A model generated the notes under the pieces. That model was not told the origin of the DNA. It saw only the letters and a list, made by a program, of their open reading frames with translations, and ran no database searches. The translations under genes and the position numbers were made by a program. Positions 40,781 through 53,560 of a stretch of 64,000 bases of DNA are shown in pieces; positions within the stretch are counted from its first letter, which is position 1, and each line of letters begins with the position of its first letter. The stretch spans positions 63,938,090 to 64,002,089 of the forward strand of contig NC_057711.1 in assembly GCF_004010195.1 (NCBI RefSeq), given 5' to 3'. This stretch comes from Chiloscyllium plagiosum (Eukaryota).

Positions 40781-40954
40781 CTAGTTATTTTCATTCATTT
40801 TATGAGAGGTGAAGTTAGAAGGATAGCTTTCAGCCAGCACATACACTGCGGGCCGAAAGGCTCTATTTATGGTCATGGCTTTTGAACAGCACAGCGCAGC
40901 ACTGTGTGCCAGGCTGGAGGTGAAGGTGAAGGTGAAGGAGTTACTGACACTCAC

Positions 40955-41079
40955 TGGAGCCACAGTTTGCGGAGCTCCCGGCTGAAGGCGGCCTTCCTGC
41001 CCGAGTCCCTGCGCTCAGGGATGAGAACCTGCAACCGCTGCCCCAACACTGAGTCCGGCTTCCGACCGCAATCGCCAGC
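40955..41079 (-). CDS. CCDC112: CCDC112 coding exon 2
   Basis: cag|AGDCGRKPDSVLGQRLQVLIPERRDSGRKAAFSRELRKLWL CA|gtgagt, 125 nt. Phases 0/2 fit the neighbouring exons, and RKAAFSRELRKLWLQ aligns with human KKAEFVRTAEKFKNQ. Confidence 0.8.
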
Positions 41080-41163
41080 CTGTCGTACAGAGAGAATTTA
41101 ACCACAGCCTTTAAACGAGAAACTTCACACCGAATGCAAACAGCAGAAAGAGTGACTCCTCAC

Positions 41164-41190
41164 CATCGTCGCTGTTACTATGGTTGCCAT
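41164..41190 (-). CDS. CCDC112: CCDC112 coding exon 1
   Basis: aagATGG Kozak context, MATIVTATM|gtgagg, similar to the human MAALTTVVV start. The ten exons sum to 1488 nt = 495 aa plus stop. Confidence 0.7.
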
Positions 41191-41208
41191 CTTTGTCAAC
41201 AAAGTGCT

Positions 41209-41455
41209 GGGTGTACGCAGACGCAGCATGACCCAAACGGCCGGGGTTTACGCAGACGCAGAATGACCCAAACGGCCGGGGTTTACGCAGACGCAGACGC
41301 AGAATGACCTAAACAGCACGGGTGTGCGCAGATGTAGCATAACCCACCGGGCCCGGGTGTGCGCAGACGCAGAACGATTCACCGGGTTTGGGCGTGCTCA
41401 GACGCACAATGATTCACCGGGCTCGGGCGTGCGCCGACGCAGACTGACACCCAGG
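41209..41455. repeat. ~35-bp CpG-rich minisatellite (about 7 diverging units) in the bidirectional promoter
   Basis: Unit GGGTGTACGCAGACGCAGCATGACCCAAACGGCCG repeated in tandem with progressive divergence. Confidence 0.85.
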
Positions 41456-41501
41456 TACACTTATACCAAGAAGAGTGAATGCGCAGGTGCAAACACTCTG
41501 T

Positions 41502-41517
41502 CCGCTAGATGGCGCTG
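41502..41517 (+). promoter_or_regulatory. Candidate CTCF site
   Basis: CCGCTAGATGGCGCTG closely matches the CTCF core CCRSYAGRKGGCRS. Confidence 0.6.
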
Positions 41518-41879
41518 GAATTGCAGCAAAGGCACCGGCATCTCAGCAAAAAAACAACTTTGCAAAGCAAACATATGCAAGCAGAGTGCTGCAAGCTGGC
41601 ACAACTCCTACTGTAAATTTCTATCGACCCCCGCCTACTCACCAAACTCCTTCCTTTCATTCTGCACGCAGATATAGCAGATGTTGTAGAAGTTTTCCGC
41701 AAACGAAGTTGCTGTGTTGCAGAACGTCCATTGATTCATGAACTTTATGCATAATTGATAAAGAGGTATTAGGACTGTGGATTCTGCAAAATAAGCTTTT
41801 AGGCATGTTGACAACATGCAAATGAATATTCTGTTGGGAGTTAGCCACGTGGTGCAAGGAGTTTGCAGATTTCAGCAAA

Positions 41880-42285
41880 ATGGCAGAACAGCAGCAGAGG
41901 AGACAGAGATTGCCCAAATTCAGCTCAGATGAGCTGGAAGTATTGATTGCGGAGGTGACTGCGCATAAGGATCAACTTTTCAGTCGTGCCCACAGACTGT
42001 CACAGGGAGAGCGTGACAAGATATGGCAAGATATCACTGCCAAGGTCAACGCAGTCTCACAGGTCAAACGGTCTGTAAAGGCCATCAAGACCCGTTGGGA
42101 TGACCTTATGCGGCGCACTAAAGAAGTTGCCCATTTGGCACGAGAGGCACGTCAAATTCAAGTAGAACCCTCTGGAGCAGAAGATCTAATCCCAGAGGAA
42201 TGGAGGGTCCATCAGGTCATGCATCCTCAGTCTATACTTTGGATGGGTGGACTGGATCCTGCGGACTTTCCTTACTGGAGGGCAA
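41880..42285 (+). CDS. Myb/SANT-like DNA-binding (NAIF1/MSANTD-type, Harbinger-related) protein, coding exon 1
   Basis: aaaATGG start; RLPKFSSDELEVLIAEV..LF..KIWQDITAKVNAVSQVKRSVKAIKTRWDDL fits the Myb_DNA-bind_5 pattern; strong donor GCA A|gtaagt (phase 1). Confidence 0.9.
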
Positions 42286-43654
42286 GTAAGTGTTTCCCTT
42301 CAATGAATTCGTCATGCTTCTAAATATCATTTAATTTTCATTCTGTTTGTAACTAATGGACATTATAGAGAGATTAAATTATCATTTGAAATAATATTTT
42401 GCTTCACTTTGGGAGGTACTGATGGATATTTTCTAACCAACCTGTTCAGAGATGTTTTTAAGCACCTCTGGAGCAAGTGGGATTTGAATCAGACCTCCTA
42501 GCTCAGAGGTATGGACACTACCTCTGCATCATTGCTAAATATCATCAGATTCATAAAACAGAACCCCAGGCTACTGTTCTGGAGATATTGATTTGAATCG
42601 CACCAGATGATGGTGAAATTTGAATTCAATAGAACCTGGATTAAAAGCCTGCCAGGTAGTCATCAGAAAAGCCACTGTCAATTGTTGTAAAACTCATCTG
42701 GTTTAGCAACGTCCTTAAGGTTAGGAAATCTGCCACCTTATCTGGGCTGACTCTGGCAGCCTAAGCCATTCAGTTGTATCAGACCACTCCAACATCTCAA
42801 GAAAGGAATGGAAGTTCTCTCCGTGTGGTGCAGATTCGATGAGCCGATGGGCTCTTTCTGCCCTGCAGGAATTCTCTGATTCTATAACAGCACTGTGTCC
42901 CCACATACCATGGACAGCAACTGTTCCAGAAGGCAGACCACCAACACCTCGCCCAAGGCAGTAAGGGATGGGCAATAAATGGTAGCCGAGACAACGATGC
43001 CCATATCTCAAGAATAAACAAAACAAAATGCAAGTCCATTGGGACTGTTAAGTTACTTTTTGTGTAAAAAAACTCACCAGGAGATAGTTATGAAATGTGC
43101 GCTTCCTTTTTCCACGTTACAGTAATGACTACACTTCAGGAAGTAATTCACTATCTGTAAAGTGCTTTGGGATGTCCTGAGTTCATTGAGATGCTTCATA
43201 CAAATAAAAGTTTTTTTCTGAATTCATGGTCTAGACATTCATGTATTGGCTGGGCCAAATGACCCTTTTGTATGTTGTACTTGTATGTGCCAAAGTTCAG
43301 ATATGAATTGACTGTTTAAATAATGAAAAAAAAAACTAAAAAATATATTCCCACACCAACCGGCATGATAAAAAGCATAAGGGCTCAGAATCCATATTCA
43401 CACCTGGAATGACAGGTTAAAAAAAAACACATTCAGTTAAAATGAACTACTTCTGTCAGGTATTTCCAGACATAATATGAAAAGTAATGCCTCTTTAACC
43501 TCTTGTTTACTGGAGTAAGAGCTTGGCCCAGTCCAGTCAAGCTGTAGTAAATGGATCCATTTCCTGATTCTTTTGTCCTTTCAGTTTCTTGGTCATTGGC
43601 TTCTTGTTGAGATCAGAATTTACAGTGCAATTGGAAGAAACATCTTTTCCCCTT

Positions 43655-43992
43655 TTTTTTAGAATTCCTACAGAGTGGAAACAGGCTCTTCGGCTCAACA
43701 GGTCTACACTGACTCTCCGAAGAGTCTCCCACCCAAACCCATTACTCTATATTTACCCCTGACTAATGCACCTAGCTTACACATCCCTGAATACTTTGGG
43801 CAATTTAGCATAGCCAATTCACCTAACCTACACACCTTTGGATTGTGAGAGGAAACTGGAGCACCCAGAGGAAACCCACGCAGACATGGGGAGAATGTGC
43901 GAACTCCACAGATGGTCACCCAAGGCTGAAATCGAACCCGGGCCCTTGATGCTGTGAGGCAGCAGTGCTAACCAAAGCCACCATGCTGCCCA
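43655..43992 (-). mobile_element. tRNA-derived V-SINE (HE1-like)
   Basis: Same head, V-domain and CR1-like tail as 53233-53560. Confidence 0.85.
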
Positions 43993-44384
43993 TACGACTG
44001 CCTGTAAATTTTTCAACTGTAGCCCAATCAGATTTAGTGTGATTTGGTGCAGTCTAAAAGCTCACTCCCCTCTGTCCAAACAGTAGGCTTTCATCCTAAT
44101 CTGAGGGGAGTAAGGCCTACTGTTTGGATGTGAGTGATCTCAATTTGCATAACAGACATCTGAATGGCTCCTGAATGAGTTCAGTTGTCAGCAGTTTGTT
44201 TTGAACCTGATCTTGGCATTCTTCACCAAGGCTGTATTTTATGATTTTTGATTTGATTTATTTTTGTCACAAGTACCGAAATACAGTGAAAGGTTTTGTT
44301 TTGTCTGATAACCAGACAAATCAGACTTTACATAAGTATATCAGGGTAATAGAACAGAATGCAGAATATATTTTTACAGCTACA

Positions 44385-44700
44385 GAGAATCATGGAAACC
44401 CTAGAGTGTGGAAGCAGGCCATTCAGCCCATTAAGTCCACACCAACGCTCTGAAGAGCATCCCACCCAGATCCACTCTGATGCCCTATCCCTGTAACCTT
44501 GCATTTCCCATGGCTAATCCACCTAACCTACACATCTCTGGACACTGTGGGTAATTTAGCGTGACCAATCCATCTAACTTGCACATCTTTGGACTGTGGG
44601 AGGAAACCAGAAAGCATGGACACGGTGAAAATGTCATCCAAAGGTACCAAGGGTAGAATCAAACCTGGGTCCCAGCTAATCGCTGAGCCACCATACTGTC
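44385..44700 (-). mobile_element. V-SINE (HE1-like), more decayed
   Basis: Contains CACATCTTTGGACTGTGGGAGGAAACC and a tail homologous to the other copies. Confidence 0.75.
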
Positions 44701-46962
44701 CTTTGAGAAGGTGCAGAGGAAGATCAACTATGATATATGAGAGTTCTGTTCAGAAGTCTGATAACAGCCAAATCTGTTGTTGCGCATATTCAAAGTTTTG
44801 TATCTTTTACCCGATGGAGAGGGACAGAAAAAAGTATAACCGGGGTGGGGGGGGAACTTTGATTATGTTGGCTGCTTTCCCGAGGCAGCGGTCTTAGGCA
44901 GAGCAGATGCCTTGTCAAACTGTGATACATCCAAAATGATTTGGAGGTGCTGGTGTTGGACTGGGGTGGACAAAGTTAATTTAAATCACACAACACCAGG
45001 TTAGAGTGCAACAGATTTGTTTGGAGTGTTCCGAAAATTAGTACTTCCAAATAAACCTGTTGGACTATAAGCTAGTGTTGTGTGATTTTTAACTTTGTAT
45101 ATCTAGTTAGATTGCTTTCTAAGGTGGGCGTAAGAGTCATTGTGCACTTACTGAATTCCCTTAGCCTTCTGAGGAAGTAGAAGCGGTGGTGTGCTTACTT
45201 GACTGTAGCATCAATGTGGATGGACCAGGACAGATTGTTGCTGATATTTACTCCCAGGAACTTGAAGCCCTTGACCACCTCCATCTCAGCACCATTGATA
45301 CAGACAGGGTTGTGTCCTAAATGCACCTCAAGTCACTGTTTTGTTTTCTCAGTGAGCGCAACACTATACTTGGATCATGAATTTCCCTTGAATTGAGACT
45401 TTTCATGTGATCCTTATAATTATGAGGATGGAGACACTCCCAGCACATCCATCTCGGGTGGAATAAAACATAGGCTTGGGAAATGAAAAATCAAATTGCA
45501 GAGGGCTCTCCCACAATTTCATGTTTAAGTAGAGCTTTGAGATAGCTGAGAAAGCCACTATATAACCTGGGTTTGTCTATAAATGTACATAATGTCAAAA
45601 AAAACAAGAATGGAAATATACAGATATAGTAAATATGTGAAAAACATATTTATTTTTCAATTTGTCAATACCTTACTACAGCCTGGACTTGTGCATTAAA
45701 CGGCACTGAAAAATATTGGGGAGTTAGCAGTGGTAAAAGTCTTCTTTTGTTGCTTAGTGTGCAATTTTAAGACAAGGGCAATACAACCTGCCATCTCCTC
45801 AATGTAGCTAAGACTTCTATCTGGGTTTTCCTGCTGCAATCTCACGTCCGAGAATCTTTCGACAGCTTTTACTGCTTCAGCTCTGGAATACTGGCAGGTG
45901 GGCATTTATCAGGGTCTAACTCCACACCCTCACCATAATGCCATGACTTGAATTGGCCCAGCTATCCATCACTGCAGCTGTATTGCTATGGCCCTGGCTC
46001 TTTGCCAGTGTGATTCCTATTGCCTGCAGAGTTGGGAATGTTCTCTGCCGCAGCTGGTAGAGCCACCCTGCTTGGATCAGATGGTTAGGATCACATGGTT
46101 ATATTACCTTGTGTACATAGGTTTGATTAACGTGAAACTACCAGTCTGAAATTATTAGATTTCTTATTCTGCTGTGAGAATGGCTGACAACTTTATCACA
46201 GTCGGAGTTTCAGGTTATCTGGATTTGACTCATGATTTCACTCTACACTGACCCAATGCACCAGTACCTCTCCTATTGTTTTACTTTGATATATGCGGAG
46301 CTGAATCCATATCTAAATGAGATTTCTGTTCATACGGATTCATTGTGTACATCAGAATTAGGCGCAGCAGGATCAGTTCAGATATGGAGCATGCTGTGGA
46401 GTCAATTGATGATCTTAGTTTCTGTTACTGGATTGCCAGTCTTAATGTGCTTCTGTAAAAAAAGATTTGGCATGCAACTACCATATCAGGACTTGGTCAC
46501 ACAGTTCCCAGCCAGCTTTCCAGTGTAATACTGAGGCACTGCTACACTCCGAGAGCTGCTATCTTTTGATGAAATGTTAAACCATCGTCTTGACAGTTCA
46601 TTTGGATGGTCAAGATCCTTGGCACATTTTTAATCGATATTCAAATTAGTATCACTGTCATTTATCTCATTATTGGGATATCTGGCACAAAGCAACTGCT
46701 ACTTTTACATAAATCACACTTCTAAAGTATAGTGAACTTATATGGAATGTTTTAATTTGATTGGGGTGCCAAATTAATTCAAATATCATATAGATGTGGT
46801 AATATTGATTTAAAAGTGGAAAGTCTATCCTCTCCCCATGTTGTTCTTACATTATTGTAGTGCCCTATATCATCCTCAGCTCATCCCAAACTGTTGCGCA
46901 TTAGATTCTGTTTGAAGTGTGAGTGGTTGAAGGAGATAACATCAACTTTAAAGTTAAAATAT

Positions 46963-47330
46963 TGATCAATCCATGAAACAGAAATTGAAAGATAATACTT
47001 CCTCGCAGATTTAAAATCAGAGTGGTCCTAACAAAATGCAAGGCTGGATTTTATGGAGGAAACAGTTCCAAAGATAAAGAACTGCTTCAAAGCTGAATAC
47101 TAAATCAGAAGCGATACAAATGATGGGTATATGAATAGGAAGGGTTTCGAGAGATATGGGCAAAGTGCTGGCAAAGGGGACTAGATTAGTTTAGGATATC
47201 TGGTAGGCATGGATGAGTTGGACTGAAGAGTACATCTGTCATAGAGCTGTACATCTCTATGACTTTTAAGTTACTGCACTACTAAATTTAATAGGTTCTA
47301 TAGCTGATTATGTTAAATCACCGGAAGATA
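46963..47330 (+). mobile_element. Gypsy gag N-terminal fragment (inverted copy), interrupted by a CR1 tail
   Basis: GWILWRKQFQR*RTASKLNTKSEA [CR1 tail ~47123-47268] VTALLNLIG; reverse-complement homologue of 48500-48605 plus 49238-49373. Confidence 0.7.
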
Positions 47331-47399
47331 AGGGTAGGTAGAGACACTCAAGAGCAGCAGCCGTTGACAACAGCAAACATGCCCAAGCACTATTCATTT

Positions 47400-49373
47400 G
47401 GTTTGGTCACTTTTTGTCATTTCCTGAAGTTGTTTCTCAACTTGATTTATTAAGAATCTTTAGAAGAATAACGAAGAATCTTTCCTTAACAATATGTTGT
47501 ATTCATTACTGAGTTTGCCTGATTCTGTGAGCAATTTTTGATAGTCTGTCTCAAAGAAACTTTTCTCCTTATGGTGATGTAGGTTTTGAAGAAGATTGAA
47601 GACACAGTATGCTTTCTTGCTCAATAGTCTGGTTTCCTTACTTTCAATGATTGATGCATTCTCTACTATCTGACATCCTTTATGTTGTAAGATTAATTGC
47701 AGGTTATAACTTTTTTTAAAGCCTTAGCATTTGTTTGAATAATCCAGTCATACTTACCCCTGTATCAAGCTTAAATTGAGTACGATATCCAGTGACATAA
47801 ATAAATTCAGTCTTTTTGATAATGGTGGATCTTCTGTATGCTATAGGAATGCTTTGAGTACCTATTCCAATGGAGTTATATCTTCACATGAGGGTTTCTC
47901 TTTTAATGGAGATGGCTGATCTAGTGTATTAAGATCTTTATGTTAGTACGTCCACTGTTCTGGAACTTGTTTCAGACCCTACACATCTTTTGGAAGTTAC
48001 CCTTTTTTTAACAGATGCAATACACTTTGTCACAGCTGAACACTGCTTTTACCCTGTCAGGCGTTTTATGTCCCACCACACTAACACTGACTCGAAGCAT
48101 TTGATCTCATGCTTATTTTTTTTGTTGACTTGTCATATATCTGTTTAGAGTGTGTGTGTGATGTTAATAGGTTCTGTTCTTCTTATGTGGCGAGGTTGTT
48201 TTTTTCCTGTGAGGAGTTTTCTGTGATTTTCCCTCGTGTCTGCTTCATAGTCTCTGTGTGGTTTGCACAGTTAGATCTCCTTTGGTCTGTAATCTGTCTG
48301 ACAAAGACTGACCAAGTGTTCCTCCAGGAATTGTGACCTTTATGAACTTGGTCTGCAAGGTTCCATGTACACAGGTTTCAACTAACTTGGAGTGGTCACT
48401 CATGAAATTGTCTCTGAAATCCATCTTGCCTGTTGAAAAATTGTATTTGTTCTCAAGTAAAAGTATTGTCAAAGTTTTTATAACATAATCAAATCTTCTG
48501 GTGATTTATTACATCATCAACTGTAGGACCTATTAAATATAGTGGTGTAGTAACTTGTTCTGCTTCGGAGTTAGTGTTCAGCTTTGAAGCAGTTCTTTAT
48601 CTTAGTTAAAAATCACACAACACCAGATTATAGTCCAACAGGTTTAATTGGAAGCACACTAGCTTTCAGAGCGACGCTCCTTCATCAGGTGATAGTGGAG
48701 GGCTCAATCCTAACACAGAATTTATAGCAAAAATTTACAGTGTGATGTAACTGAAATTATACATTGAAAAATTGATTGTCAGTTAAGCCTTTCATCTGTT
48801 AGAATACATTGATAGTTTCACTTCTTTCATGTNNNNNNNNNNNNNNNNNNNNNNNNNNNNNNNNNNNNNNNNNNNNNNNNNNNNNNNNNNNNNNNNNNNN
48901 NNNNNNNNNNNNNNNNNNNNNNNNNNNNNNNNNNNNNNNNNNNNNNNNNNNNNNNNNNNNNNNNNNNNNNNNNNNNNNNNNNNNNNNNNNNNNNNNNNNN
49001 NNNNNNNNNNNNNNNNNNNNNNNNNNNNNNNNNNNNNNNNNNNNNNNNNNNNNNNNNNNNNNNNNNNNNNNNNNNNNNNNNNNNNNNNNNNNNNNNNNNN
49101 NNNNNNNNNNNTTTAAAAAAGTTGCATTCTCGGGTTAGCTGTTAACAATGGTGTTAGCTAGACAATATGTTGAAGGTGTTAGCCCCCTGTGTTCTCTGTC
49201 TATGCCATGATGTTTAGATTGATTCTAATCTAAAAAATTCTTTATCTTAGGAACTGTATCCTCCAAAAATTCCAATCTTGGGTTTTACTAGGAGCTCTCT
49301 GATTTTGAATTTGCTAGGAAATGTTATTTTTTAATTTCTCCTTTAATGGATTGACAAATATTCTGACTTTAAA
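47400..49373 (-). mobile_element. Decayed Gypsy LTR-retrotransposon gag-protease region
   Basis: In order on the minus strand: DWNFWRIQFLR*RTASKL..EQVTTPLYLIG, DNFMSD..SLSDRLQTKGDLT, zinc-knuckle remnant KGNFQKMCR and aspartic protease FKLDTGVS (~47750-47790). Confidence 0.8.
48606..49237 (-). mobile_element. Penelope 3'-terminal fragment with family B hammerhead (contains gap 48833-49111)
   Basis: TSD TTCTTTATCTTAG (48593-48605 / 49238-49250); near-identical to 60103-60470; ribozyme motif at 48657-48691. Confidence 0.85.
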
Positions 49374-50903
49374 GGTATGCAATATTTGTTTATAATTAAA
49401 TATTCTATCTGCTTGCCTTCTTATATTTAGGAATACAGTTTATTTGAATCACTGTAAACTTTGCTAGTGATGTGTGTCATTTTTCACCAGTCTTTGTTAT
49501 TTCAATTTCACAGTTGAACTGTATCAAATTCCTCTAATAAAGCTTGAAATTGTATTTACTGGGTATTCTACAGTGATCCTACTGGGTATTCTACAGTTTA
49601 TGCATCCGCTGCAGCCGGTGTGGCCTCCTCTATATTGGGGAGACAGGCCGCCCTGTTCTAGATTTTAAATTTTATTTTCTTGAAAAGGTCAAGTATTTTT
49701 AAATGGTGTGGCAATATTCTCCTAATAAAGCTTTTACAATTCTTTTAAATGTTTTAAAAGTTGTGGAAACTTTTAAATACATTTCTTAGTAGTGTTATTA
49801 TACCCTTCCTTATTTCAGGATTCAAAATGAAGGAATCCTGCTTCTTTTGTTTCTTTTTGGGAAGTTTCACGTCTTTTTGAACAAAATGGAGGGTACATGT
49901 CATTTTCTATTTTTGGGGTGATTGGCGCATTTTTCCCCTGACAAAATAGTATATTCATACTTGTTCCACTATTAAATATGTTCTGCATTTTTCCTTGCTA
50001 CTGACGTGCTTTATTCATCCTAATTGTCTTTTGCAGTGACTTGGAAGGTGAATTTTTTTGATGGTTCAAAGGAATTGATATATGTTCACTTTTACATTTC
50101 GTAAACCATTGTACCAAAAAATCGGTTACATTGTTGCAGAAGATAATGGTCGTGATAAGGGGTTAACATTCATATTACACCAGTCCCACCCATTCAACTG
50201 ATGGTTGAGACAGGGACAAGATATAGGTGTAACAGCTCTCAGTGGTCCTCATAATTAGGCAATAAACCTTCTTGTTATCTAAGAACAGTACCTCTCTTGT
50301 AGATACTCTTCACTAATTGCCAGATAGGCTCAAGATAAAGCAAAGAAAAAGGAGAATTGGTGTCAGTAACTTATTCCAAACAACCCTTAGGCAGTTGGTA
50401 GAGGTTGCAAATTCCAGAAGATACCTGGTGTCATCATCTTGGAAAATACCACAATGATAATGTTTCAGAATGTATACTGTTTGAACAAAAGGTTGTTTAA
50501 CTGACTAATTTGTTTATAACCTTTAAAAGGACAGTGTTGCTGTGGACTGTTGATCTTGCTCAATATTTTCCATTGTTTATATTAAAAAAAGATTGCAATG
50601 GTATAATGTGTTGCCAGTTGCACCTGAGGCCAAGAAAGTGTGTATTTTTATTTGAATTGCTGCTACAGACATTTCACTGATGGCCAACTCAGTAATTTCT
50701 GTAAATAATTTGGAGCGTGCTGTTCAATTCATCAAGTCAGCTCAAAACTGCCCATAATGCAATATAATTCAAATTTTAATACCATTTAAAATGATTAGTA
50801 GGTTTGAAGTTTTAAAACACATTATAGGGACCTTACTGATGGAAAACAGTGTTTGTCGGTTCTTGTGATTTAATACAGTAACCTCTAATTGTATTTTTTC
50901 CAG

Positions 50904-51589
50904 TAAAGGAAGAAGGAGGATCCTATGCAGAAGAAGCTGGTCCATCGAGAGAACAACTCATTTGCAATGAGGATGGAGCAAGAAGTTGGACACCATCCTC
51001 AGAATCTCCAACTAACCCTAATATGCCACCCTCACTATCAGAGACATACGTTTCTCACAGGGATGCATGCCCACCGCCCAATGCCAAATTAGTGAATGAA
51101 TTTGAAAGGCAACTGCTTGAATCTCAAAACCAGCAGACTGTACTCTTGAGAGATTTTTGGGTAGAATTCCAGCCCCTTATGCGGGATCTCATACAGGCAA
51201 CCCGGGAGTTAGCTCATGAAACTCACTTAGTAGCTGAGCATACCCATCAGGTGGCCCAGCAGACAAAGGGAGTGGCTGAGAACACCAGAGAATTGGTGCT
51301 GCAAAACCAGCAGTTACTCCTTCACACCCAGGAAATGGCACAAAACATCTCAGAGATGCATCTGTCCTTGCAGCGGCATTTCTCCCACACATCCCTTGAG
51401 CCACCAAGGCTCATGAGGTCCATGCTCGAACAACCAATCCACAAAACAAGTTCAGAAGGCCACTCTCCCATACACCCTCCTCAGCCCCAGAGTCTAGGAT
51501 CTTCTACAGTGCAGCAATCAGAAGCACTTTGTTTTGCATTAACAAGGAGGAAGTCTAGGACCCCCGAAAAGAAAAGACGATTAGTCTGA
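50904..51589 (+). CDS. Myb/SANT-like protein, coding exon 2 (coiled coil and basic tail); spliced product 363 aa
   Basis: ttttttccag|TA AAG GAA: phase matches the exon 1 donor and the frame is open for 686 nt to TGA. Heptad repeat and C-terminal RRKSRTPEKKRRLV; AATAAA at 51722-51727. Confidence 0.8.
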
Positions 51590-51721
51590 GGGAGACATGT
51601 GACATAGACTACAATGTGTCAAACAAAGATGTTTAATTCTTTACTGTATATATTTTAAAAATATTTTGTTATATTTTTGATTGCAACGTGTTGTTCAACT
51701 TTTTTTCTATGTATATGTCAA

Positions 51722-51727
51722 AATAAA
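51722..51727 (+). terminator. Candidate polyadenylation signal of the Myb/SANT gene
   Basis: AATAAA ~130 nt after the stop, followed by GT/T-rich sequence. Confidence 0.6.
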
Positions 51728-52049
51728 ACATCATTTGTTAGTTTTGTTTCAACCGTTTTTAAAGAATCTGACATAGAGCAGCATTGTGCCAAATCTGCAT
51801 GACAGGAAAAGTTTGATTTGTATTTACACTATCTTCATCCCTTCTAGGTGGCACACATTACATTATTGGATGATAGGACTAGCAATAGGTAGTTATCATG
51901 AAAAGCTAGGACACTGTTTAGTTCTTACCATTTTAAATTTGTTCACACGACATAGGTGTCATTGGGTAGGCCAGCATTTGTCTCCCATTCCCATTGTTAC
52001 CAAAGCTCTGGCCTGTGCCTCTATTCGTGCAACAAAGAAAAAAACTTCC

Positions 52050-53060
52050 CTCATGTTACTGAAAATGATATCGTAGAGTGCAGTCCAGTGTTTTGTTTCA
52101 CATAACTCTTTGAAGTTCTGGGCAGCAGCCCTCTCCTCGGCAGCCAGTAGGAGGTTGGCACATCCTCGTTGAATCCCCACTCTTCAGGCTGCCATGTGTT
52201 GTGTGAATCACCTGATGTCACTTCCTTACCAGCCTTTTCTAATTCCCTCAGGTGAAATAATCTGAATTGAGCAAGGAGTTTGAGCTGGAGAAGGAACAGA
52301 GAATAATGGGAAAAGAAGTTTGAGCAGTGCTGATGGATAGTTTCGGATCCAAGTTGATCTCCACTCTCACTCCTTCATCCTCGTTCTCCTTTGTTCCCCA
52401 TCATTGTTGTTTGCATGAGATAGTTGTGTCCCTATTGTCCTCATCACTATCTTTTCCCAACTGTGCCACCATGCTTACCTCACCCCATTGCTGATCGATC
52501 TACAGGAAAGAAGATATTAGCTGAGAATGGGATTGAAGCTTAAGGGGCTCACTCTGCCTCCATCCATTTCCCAGTATCCCTGAACAGGAAGCATGCAATT
52601 GCAATATGTTTCAGTATATGTGGACCTTGTCTACCAAAAGGACACAGGAGAGGTATCATTGCCTTCAGAAATGCTAATTTAGTTTGTTAGGTTACTTTTC
52701 AGTTTTATTGTGGTAATCCTTTCAAAAGGGGTCACATATTACAATCAATGGAAGTATAACAGCTAGAAGGTTATGGTGTTTCACAGGGAAGTCACAATAA
52801 GTGTGTTCAACCAGTAACTCAGGCAACAGCAATATACTTTTCGATCTGATCATCTGTGAGGAAGCAGCAGAGAACCTCCCAGTGACTAATCTATTTTAAA
52901 CATTTCTCCTGAACAGACAACATTAACACCAAGTTGAAGTCTTTTGGAAATGGTGTCTGGTATGGGCAGAGGTTAGGCTTTGTGGCTTTCCCATCAAATC
53001 CCAGCAAACTGAGTTAATCAATAATTCACTTTAATTGCGACAACATGTTTTTTAGAAGCC
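52050..53060 (-). pseudogene. Possible highly eroded Harbinger/HARBI1-like transposase fossil
   Basis: Short colinear motif remnants in different frames: LSVQEK (52903-52920), VTGRF, VA*VT, DFP, SIDC (52741-52752), KG-H (52710-52722), H-N-MAA*RVG (~52175-52211). Needs several frameshifts; speculative. Confidence 0.25.
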
Positions 53061-53232
53061 TTTATAATCAAGATCTCTTAGATATGTCGCCAATTAATAA
53101 GACAGGAATCAAGGCAGAAAAAATTGGATTGAATTTTTCAAAAAGTTTTCTTTCACTCCTCTAACTCTGACGTGAGTCAAATTTAAATCTTCTCTCACTT
53201 GCACCTTCACATAGAACCCTTTCTCCCTATCT

Positions 53233-53560
53233 AGATTAGATTAGATTACATTACATTACATTACATTACAGTGTGGAAACAGGCCCTTTGGCCCAACAAG
53301 TCCACACCGACCCGCCGAAGCGAAACCCACCCATACCGCGACAGTTACCCCTTACCTAACACTACGGGCAATTTAGCATGGCCAATTCACCTGACCTGCA
53401 CATCTTTGGACTGTGGGAGGAAACCGGAGCACCCGGAGGAAACCCACGCAGACACGGGGAGAACGTGCAAACTCCACACAGTCAGTCGCCTGAGGTGGGA
53501 ATTGAACCCCGGTCTCTGGCGCTGTGAGGCAGCAGTGCTAACCACTGTGCCACCGTGCCG
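53233..53560 (-). mobile_element. Young tRNA-derived V-SINE (HE1-like), full length
   Basis: A box TGGCACAGTGG, B box GGTTCAATTCC, V-domain and a (TGTAA)n(TCTAA)n tail. Confidence 0.9.

Follow-up and report, generated by a model that had tools for sequence, protein, structure and literature searches.

Harbinger/PIF transposons encode a Myb-like protein that, according to the sections of PMC9179366 available, binds the ends of the element and imports the transposase. PMC9392472 derives the genes NAIF1 and MSANTD1-4 from Harbinger Myb-like genes, notes that NAIF1 was reported to bind DNA and HARBI1, and names PRDM11, TSNARE1, MYPOP and ZSCAN20 as putative Harbinger-derived cases. The class of Harbinger-derived Myb-like genes is established; the gene described here, located in a 64,000-nucleotide (nt) stretch of the genome of the carpet shark Chiloscyllium plagiosum (contig NC_057711.1, positions 63,938,090 to 64,002,089; hereafter the window, with positions counted from its first letter), adds a member to it, with a function that is predicted only. 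We regard this shark Myb gene, with a probability of about 0.68, as a spliced single-copy host gene of cartilaginous fishes, likely a domesticated Harbinger Myb-like gene and likely encoding a nuclear DNA-binding adaptor.

The shark gene resembles NAIF1 and MSANTD1-4, as characterised in the covered part of PMC9392472, in being single copy, in encoding a Myb-like trihelix, in its negative selection and expression, in its presence in cartilaginous fish and in the lack of transposon ends, but it differs from them in its separate locus and its distinctive Thr/Leu-Val/Ala heptad coil, and they are not among its best matches. With the Myb-like open reading frame (ORF) 2 of active Harbinger/PIF elements it shares the Pfam family and the trihelix; unlike that ORF, it has no inverted ends and no transposase, is present in one copy and is conserved across sharks, rays and chimaera. 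The portion of PMC9392472 that was covered does not mention the shark gene, and the literature searches turned up no paper on it. The published vertebrate list of Harbinger-derived genes started from human proteins and could therefore not reach genes that occur only outside mammals; the Myb gene and its paralogue on contig C21 indicate that cartilaginous fish keep their own members of the class.

Structure, transcription and constraint of the shark Myb gene

The two coding exons (Table 1) join in phase 1, and the joined reading frame (406 + 686 = 1092 nt) encodes 363 amino acids (aa) followed by one terminal stop. The ATG at 41880 has A at -3 and G at +4, the splice donor AA/GTAAGT lies directly after 42285, the acceptor at 50904 consists of a pyrimidine tract and CCAG/TA, and the AATAAA at 51722 is the sole such signal within 1 kb past the stop. 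Four sequencing runs, comprising two contig runs (X1 and X3) and two raw runs (X14 and X15), were aligned to positions 50600-52000. In both contig runs (2/2) the contigs start exactly at 50904, and their loose 5' letters are the last 30 nt of exon 1; in exon 2 the X1 contig is at least 99% alike to the window and the X3 contig has 15 differences in 687 positions. X1 and X3 represent related organisms, and the RNA nature of both runs is presumed; the spliced contigs fit RNA, because the genome has no intronless copy. The raw single-cell RNA runs, sampled at 2% and 6%, gave one read on the 3' end of the gene in X14 and none in X15. The Myb gene is expressed as spliced RNA in two related organisms. 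An artefact or a chance ORF is ruled out by the splice junction and the orthologues; an ORF of the same make-up stayed stop-free under 10% random substitution in 15 of 2000 trials.

Searched against its own genome, exon 1 matched itself and one paralogue on contig C21 (47% over 95 aa; 76 scored candidates), and exon 2 matched itself only (55 scored candidates). Ten full-length orthologues of 359-371 aa were found in sharks, rays and the elephant shark, being 65-91% identical to the joined protein, with 65% for the chimaera; the protein searches found no full-length orthologue outside cartilaginous fish, and one skate isoform carries exon 2 only. The gene is single-copy and kept intact in sharks, rays and chimaera, and its location beside the candidates for CCDC112 and PGGT1B was observed in this carpet-shark genome. 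Across the 10 orthologues, invariant columns number 55 of 90 in the Myb part, 58 of 95 in the coil, 12 of 60 in the linker and 4 of 63 in the tail, a distribution that points to modular constraint on the Myb part and the coil as against the linker and the tail; 4 of the last 8 columns, which form a basic C-terminus, are invariant. The comparison of exon 2 with X3 gave 6 replacement and 8 silent differences, with a ratio of replacement to silent polymorphism (pN/pS) of 0.22 for these 14 differences of a single pair.

The initial annotation had described a two-exon gene for a 363-aa Myb/SANT protein with a Kozak start, splice sites and a poly(A) signal, and its coordinates proved exact, with the joined frame open. 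The spliced transcript that it expected across 42285/50904 appears in the contigs of X1 and X3, and the purifying selection that it postulated is borne out by the pN/pS of exon 2 (one pair) and by conservation to chimaera. Its Myb/SANT assignment agrees with the Pfam match, and its description of an intron rich in insertions with the repeat content: sequence that recurs as repeats in the other fetched loci makes up at least 21% of the intron (a lower bound) and 0% of the exons and promoter. Many near-identical copies flanked by terminal inverted repeats, which would have spoken against its proposal, were not found: each exon has one locus, and none of the 25 longest inverted-repeat arm pairs encloses both exons. 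The idea of a narrow lineage-specific novelty did not survive, as the gene is common to sharks, rays and chimaera. The designation "unnamed" holds in part: the gene is already predicted in RefSeq, as uncharacterized, but its Stegostoma and Rhincodon orthologues bear the NCBI placeholder label si:ch211-261d7.3, a zebrafish name.

The model of the Myb domain, made with a 50-row alignment, contained three helices, with a predicted local distance difference test score (pLDDT) of 82-97 in the ten-residue blocks from residue 11 to residue 90, and the aromatic residues F14, W49 and W73 are conserved. A Foldseek search with this model gave no match at E ≤ 0.001, its first match being the Zeste DNA-binding domain (E 0.018, template modelling score 0.73 by target). 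In the structural alignment the Drosophila Zeste domain (PDB code 5cqq), the best DNA-bound match, had a Z-score of 8.1 and a root-mean-square deviation of 2.8 over 73 residues, tied with Sap1 (Z-score 8.2) and followed by GT-1 (7.1); these values are near the range where a merely common arrangement is possible, and Pfam agrees independently. The Zeste and shark domains are 20-25% identical, and the target sequence cannot be read from the fold that they have in common. The predicted long helix has eight heptad repeats in all 10 orthologues, with Thr/Asn in position a, Leu/Val/Met in position d and Ala/Val in position e. A PDB sequence search with the coil returned the designed peptides CC-Type2-(TaId) only (E 0.005); kinship with them was rejected, the likeness being one of pattern only. 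An I-K-E-E motif, which we take to be a SUMO consensus, spans the exon-exon junction.

Relatives of the gene and the question of orthology

A profile search over 1.84 billion representatives gave 732 hits, of which the best 150 were examined; names were checked for 30 proteins. The best non-shark matches among those listed were a coelacanth LIN37-isoform protein and the bird/marsupial PRDM11 Myb module (E 1.5e-31 and 1.6e-29), the latter being also annotated as free proteins of 321-337 aa. Further relatives are fused, judging by their names, to TSNARE1 (frog), VRK3 (reedfish), POLR3F (coelacanth) and a CARD protein (axolotl), and a conserved ray-finned fish relative was identified as si:ch211-261d7.3. 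Many of the listed relatives are salamander proteins, and many of the unnamed or salamander relatives could be element-borne; an expansion of Myb-bearing Harbingers in newt is described in the available part of PMC5741667. No true member of NAIF1 or MSANTD1-4 was present among 30 named clusters (the listed matches plus the gene's own hits). The initial annotation had offered, as an alternative to domestication in this lineage, an ancient gene lost in mammals; a loss of the family in mammals is not supported, with the marsupial PRDM11-locus module among the best non-shark matches listed, and between the two alternatives the trees, which reject neither sister group, do not decide.

As an observation in its own right, database proteins show the Myb-coil module behind N-terminal exons of LIN37 (P0172), VRK3 (P0053), POLR3F (P0061), a CARD protein (P0096) and TSNARE1 (P0036), as either genuine captures or read-through models. 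The modules of PRDM11, LIN37 and TSNARE1 share with the shark gene the F-x-R-Q-L-L start of the coil, the phase-1 intron (bird, on DNA) and, for PRDM11, 58% identity in the Myb core, and the basic tail is common to the shark gene and the PRDM11 and LIN37 modules. They are inside or fused to host genes elsewhere, whereas the shark gene appears free-standing, with a Myb loop shorter by one residue and about 30% identity overall. At the bird locus L115 the Myb module is 6.7 kb behind a PRDM11 exon. The Myb exon ends in a phase-1 donor about 126 codons past the first Myb Phe in the bird, 123 in the teleost (L116) and 121 in the shark, and the bird, fish and shark genes have an identical two-exon plan. 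Where checkable, the PRDM11 module and the fish gene sit away from CCDC112/PGGT1B.

The quick tree comprised 150 domains, the careful tree 27 rows (17 of 44 were left out as redundant or distant) and the approximately unbiased (AU) tests 20 rows, the latter two with 100 columns. In the quick tree the fish, lobe-finned and VRK3 modules clustered with the shark gene in a group of 18 rows (support 90). MYPOP proteins have lower scores and formed a separate group in this tree, and a frog MYPOP was placed inside the weak 14-row group of the shark gene in the careful tree. The AU tests rejected none of the placements compared, with p-values (p-AU) of 0.64 for shark plus fish, 0.52 for shark plus PRDM11/LIN37 and 0.12 for shark plus the C21 paralogue; an origin by duplication of the latter is the least favoured of the placements tested. 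The reciprocal search and phylogeny proposed in the initial annotation thus gave a divided answer: zebrafish and bird queries both pick the shark gene first in the shark genome, but the AU tests favour no single orthologue. The NCBI label si:ch211-261d7.3 on shark genes is explainable by these first matches.

The label on two shark orthologues, the top match of the zebrafish protein in this genome (E 3.9e-13) and a tree uniting shark and fish that scores 2.5 log units above the free tree would all be expected if the shark gene were the true orthologue of ray-finned si:ch211-261d7.3, descending from one jawed-vertebrate ancestral gene that moved in one lineage and was lost in tetrapods. The two genes share 50% identity in the Myb core, the intron phase and a Myb loop shorter by one residue, and among the 65 measurable of the 150 domains the short loop is confined to four copies from the shark, the fish gene of the reedfish and a single unrelated protein. 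This likeness is, however, limited to the Myb domain: the fish gene has another coil without the F-x-R-Q-L-L start, finds in the VRK3-fused Myb of the reedfish the relative with which its alignment does extend into the coil, and has an additional N-terminal part of about 90-125 aa. Its chromosome context is probably different as well, since a gene of the same bacterial artificial chromosome (BAC) is on zebrafish chromosome 16 at 25.2 Mb, beside trypsin, and pggt1b is on chromosome 8 at 0.41 Mb, according to the part of PMC5690287 covered, the position of si:ch211-261d7.3 being deduced from the BAC name. Direct orthology with the fish gene seems unlikely. The zebrafish gene is expressed, as indicated in the available part of PMC7486121, and the literature searches gave no paper on it; a position next to lin37 was unsupported, lin37 being on chromosome 15.

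Orthology with the lobe-finned module (the amniote PRDM11 locus and the coelacanth LIN37 fusion), with relocation, would mean that mammals still have the gene, and we rate it slightly lower than orthology with the fish gene. It would account for the top-scoring non-shark matches listed, for the PRDM11 identity in the Myb core with an alignment that reaches the coil, for the choice of the shark gene by the bird protein, and for the equal place and phase of the intron. On the other side, shark PRDM11 is on another contig (C16, 62.0 Mb), with no Myb in 200 kb around; the bird module matches the TSNARE1 modules of lungfish and frog no less well than the shark gene, and they join it first (support 89/86); and the F-x-R-Q-L-L motif is common across the relatives and is therefore probably ancestral. 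Around shark PRDM11, three PR/SET exons within 120 kb (G000:C16:61.88-62.01 Mb; L070, L076, L078) represent PRDM11 and two divergent neighbours, with further pairs on C47.

Harbinger origin and predicted role

The Harbinger origin of the Myb gene is likely, judging by its family and pattern, and what it would most simply involve is separate insertions of one mobile cassette, as suggested by the differing positions per lineage and the repeated fusions behind unrelated exons. A family of two-exon Myb-coil cassettes would have been mobile in early jawed vertebrates; one copy may have inserted next to the promoter of CCDC112 before sharks and chimaeras diverged, shed its transposase and ends and taken over this promoter, and sister cassettes would have become fixed at other places in other lineages. 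A recent or active Harbinger/PIF copy is ruled out by the single locus and by the lack of a transposase and of enclosing inverted repeats. No transposase remnant was found in the window, where six intact shark transposase-like ORFs gave no match at E < 0.95. In a search for the terminal inverted repeats of 25-50 bp that would flank an active unit, no pair among the 25 longest of 84 arm pairs in 40800-53500 spans both exons, although old ends may have decayed.

Several results weigh against a domesticated Harbinger gene with the role proposed below. Within about 5 kb of the Myb loci a transposase remnant was found in 0 of 20 cases (control 1/35), so the initial annotation's view of a domesticated Harbinger protein is backed by membership in a Myb/SANT family of the kind that Harbinger donates and not by a transposase near the 20 shark Myb loci. 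No Harbinger element carrying a Myb of the gene's subfamily was found in the shark genome, the decayed shark Myb-like copies belong to another tree branch (L022) and share no DNA with the Myb gene, and the part of PMC9179366 covered reports no Harbinger elements in the elephant shark. The careful tree leaves the sister group of the shark gene unsettled, and a single old gene that was simply inherited and later changed its place is a possible alternative; some of the LIN37-, VRK3- and POLR3F-type fusions may be annotation read-throughs rather than captures. The full-length protein model is also poor, with a pLDDT of 49.

The Myb fold, nearest to Zeste, Sap1 and GT-1, weak matches in clam and springtail proteins and the failure to identify a transposon relative are what an old host Myb/SANT (Zeste-like) transcription-factor family that had multiplied through duplication, without ever being part of a transposon, would predict. 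The scattered lineage-specific positions and the repeated fusion behind the exons of unrelated genes fit a mobile cassette better, and many close relatives come from salamanders, where Myb-bearing Harbingers expanded; a purely host family is accordingly very improbable in our estimation.

For the domesticated gene, a role as a nuclear adaptor is probable, judging from its domain composition. The trihelix domain would read a DNA site, Zeste-like, the basic tail would direct nuclear import, and the coil with its Thr/Leu/Ala heptads would oligomerise the protein or dock a partner. The most plausible partner would be a chromatin complex or one of the intact HARBI1-like proteins that this genome encodes, and the protein may accordingly act as a transcriptional or chromatin regulator. 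NAIF1 and the plant examples to which PMC9392472 refers provide the analogy that makes these partners the best candidates.

In the shark genome all 150 scored candidates (of 1321) matched the transposase family PF13359, most of them with stops, and 28 matches to PF13873 were found, of which the best 12 are stop-free. Six intact stop-free HARBI1-like ORFs of 374-566 aa were observed (L035, L036, L037, L038, L039, L040), five of them 43-57% alike; possibly several of them are domesticated, whereas a single such transposase has been described. PF13873 is represented by ten further exons free of stops (L007, L008, L011-L018), among them a related pair, L011 and L012, and L007, which presumably resembles MSANTD4. 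A dispersed decayed Myb-like repeat (L117, L119, L121, L122, L127, L130, L132), with copies of 68-83% DNA identity and no transposase found within about 5 kb, is perhaps a Myb-only non-autonomous element. The C21 paralogue (G000:C21:46529813-46534697; L002, L055, L058) has the two-exon Myb-coil plan with a phase-1 intron and a longer first exon. It is conserved in other cartilaginous fish (P0014-P0021, P0064), has alpha-galactosidase-family exons close by and is a second candidate domesticated gene.

A broader proposal, which we put forward tentatively and hold somewhat less probable than its opposite, is that Myb-coil cassettes were captured independently at at least eight jawed-vertebrate loci (beside CCDC112 and an alpha-galactosidase-family gene in sharks, and at PRDM11, LIN37, POLR3F, TSNARE1, VRK3, the CARD gene and si:ch211-261d7.3), and that sharks keep an undescribed toolkit of about 12 intact Myb-like and six intact HARBI1-like genes, which may pair as host chromatin regulators. 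If the scattered positions do reflect repeated capture, they would offer a tractable case of one transposon gene tamed many times and a setting in which to understand the Myb module, so far unexplained, of human PRDM11 and TSNARE1.

The locus and its surroundings

Table 1. Features of the shark Myb gene and its promoter side (positions in the window)
Feature	Positions	Strand	Basis or remark
CpG-rich stretch, likely promoter shared with the opposite-strand neighbour (putative role)	41000..41879	.	CpG observed/expected 0.8-1.0 at 41001-41800
Candidate first coding exon of the neighbour: ATG, 9 codons, GTGAGG donor	41164..41190	-	sequence pattern
35-bp tandem array, 6.7 copies of a CpG-rich unit, between the two start codons	41209-41448
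Coding exon 1: Myb/SANT-like domain and conserved tail, 135 codons + 1 nt	41880..42285	+	end confirmed by contig loose ends
Myb/SANT-like trihelix domain, residues 10-82, PF13873	41907..42125	+	E 3.6e-18; model; fold matches
Phase-1 GT-AG intron, 8618 nt, repeat copies and a 279-nt assembly gap	42286..50903	+
Coding exon 2: linker, coiled-coil helix, basic tail, stop	50904..51589	+	contig start and joined frame
Predicted long helix, residues 195-294, heptad coil	51080..51379	+	low-confidence model; 58/95 columns invariant in 10 orthologues
Basic C-terminal tail, likely nuclear localisation signal	51545..51586	+	deduced from pattern
Poly(A) signal AATAAA	51722..51727	+	sequence pattern

The candidate first exon of the neighbour lies 690 bp from the Myb ATG on the opposite strand, and it is on this candidate exon (41190-41164) that the putative head-to-head layout of the two genes rests. 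The upstream neighbour shows CCDC148-family features (score 0.90; 23% of members carry the family), and beyond it, on the same strand, there are prenyltransferase-beta exons; by these features the two genes are presumably CCDC112 and PGGT1B. The covered part of PMC10379344 gives a list of 33 genes for human 5q22, which includes CCDC112 and PGGT1B and no Myb/SANT gene. Within 150 kb, none of the 25 longest ORFs outside repeats could be recognised as part of a downstream neighbour gene. Beyond the 35-bp array, positions 41502-41515 contain a putative CTCF-like motif.

At L105 (G000:C2:63891805-63895014) a prenyltransferase match lies within a 449-aa open frame with two similar hits, which is unusual for a short exon; possibly exon sequence is repeated there in tandem, or the long frame arose in the assembly. 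The intron contains an old inverted repeat (46946-47330 and 48493-49374) with about 240 bp per arm and pieces 81-93% alike; each arm is broken by a later insertion and has no match in the other fetched loci, and the repeat may be the fossil of a long-ended DNA transposon. The fragments L144-L145, which lie about 80 kb past the window on its downstream side, resemble a decayed endogenous retrovirus, being presumably gag-like and pol-like.

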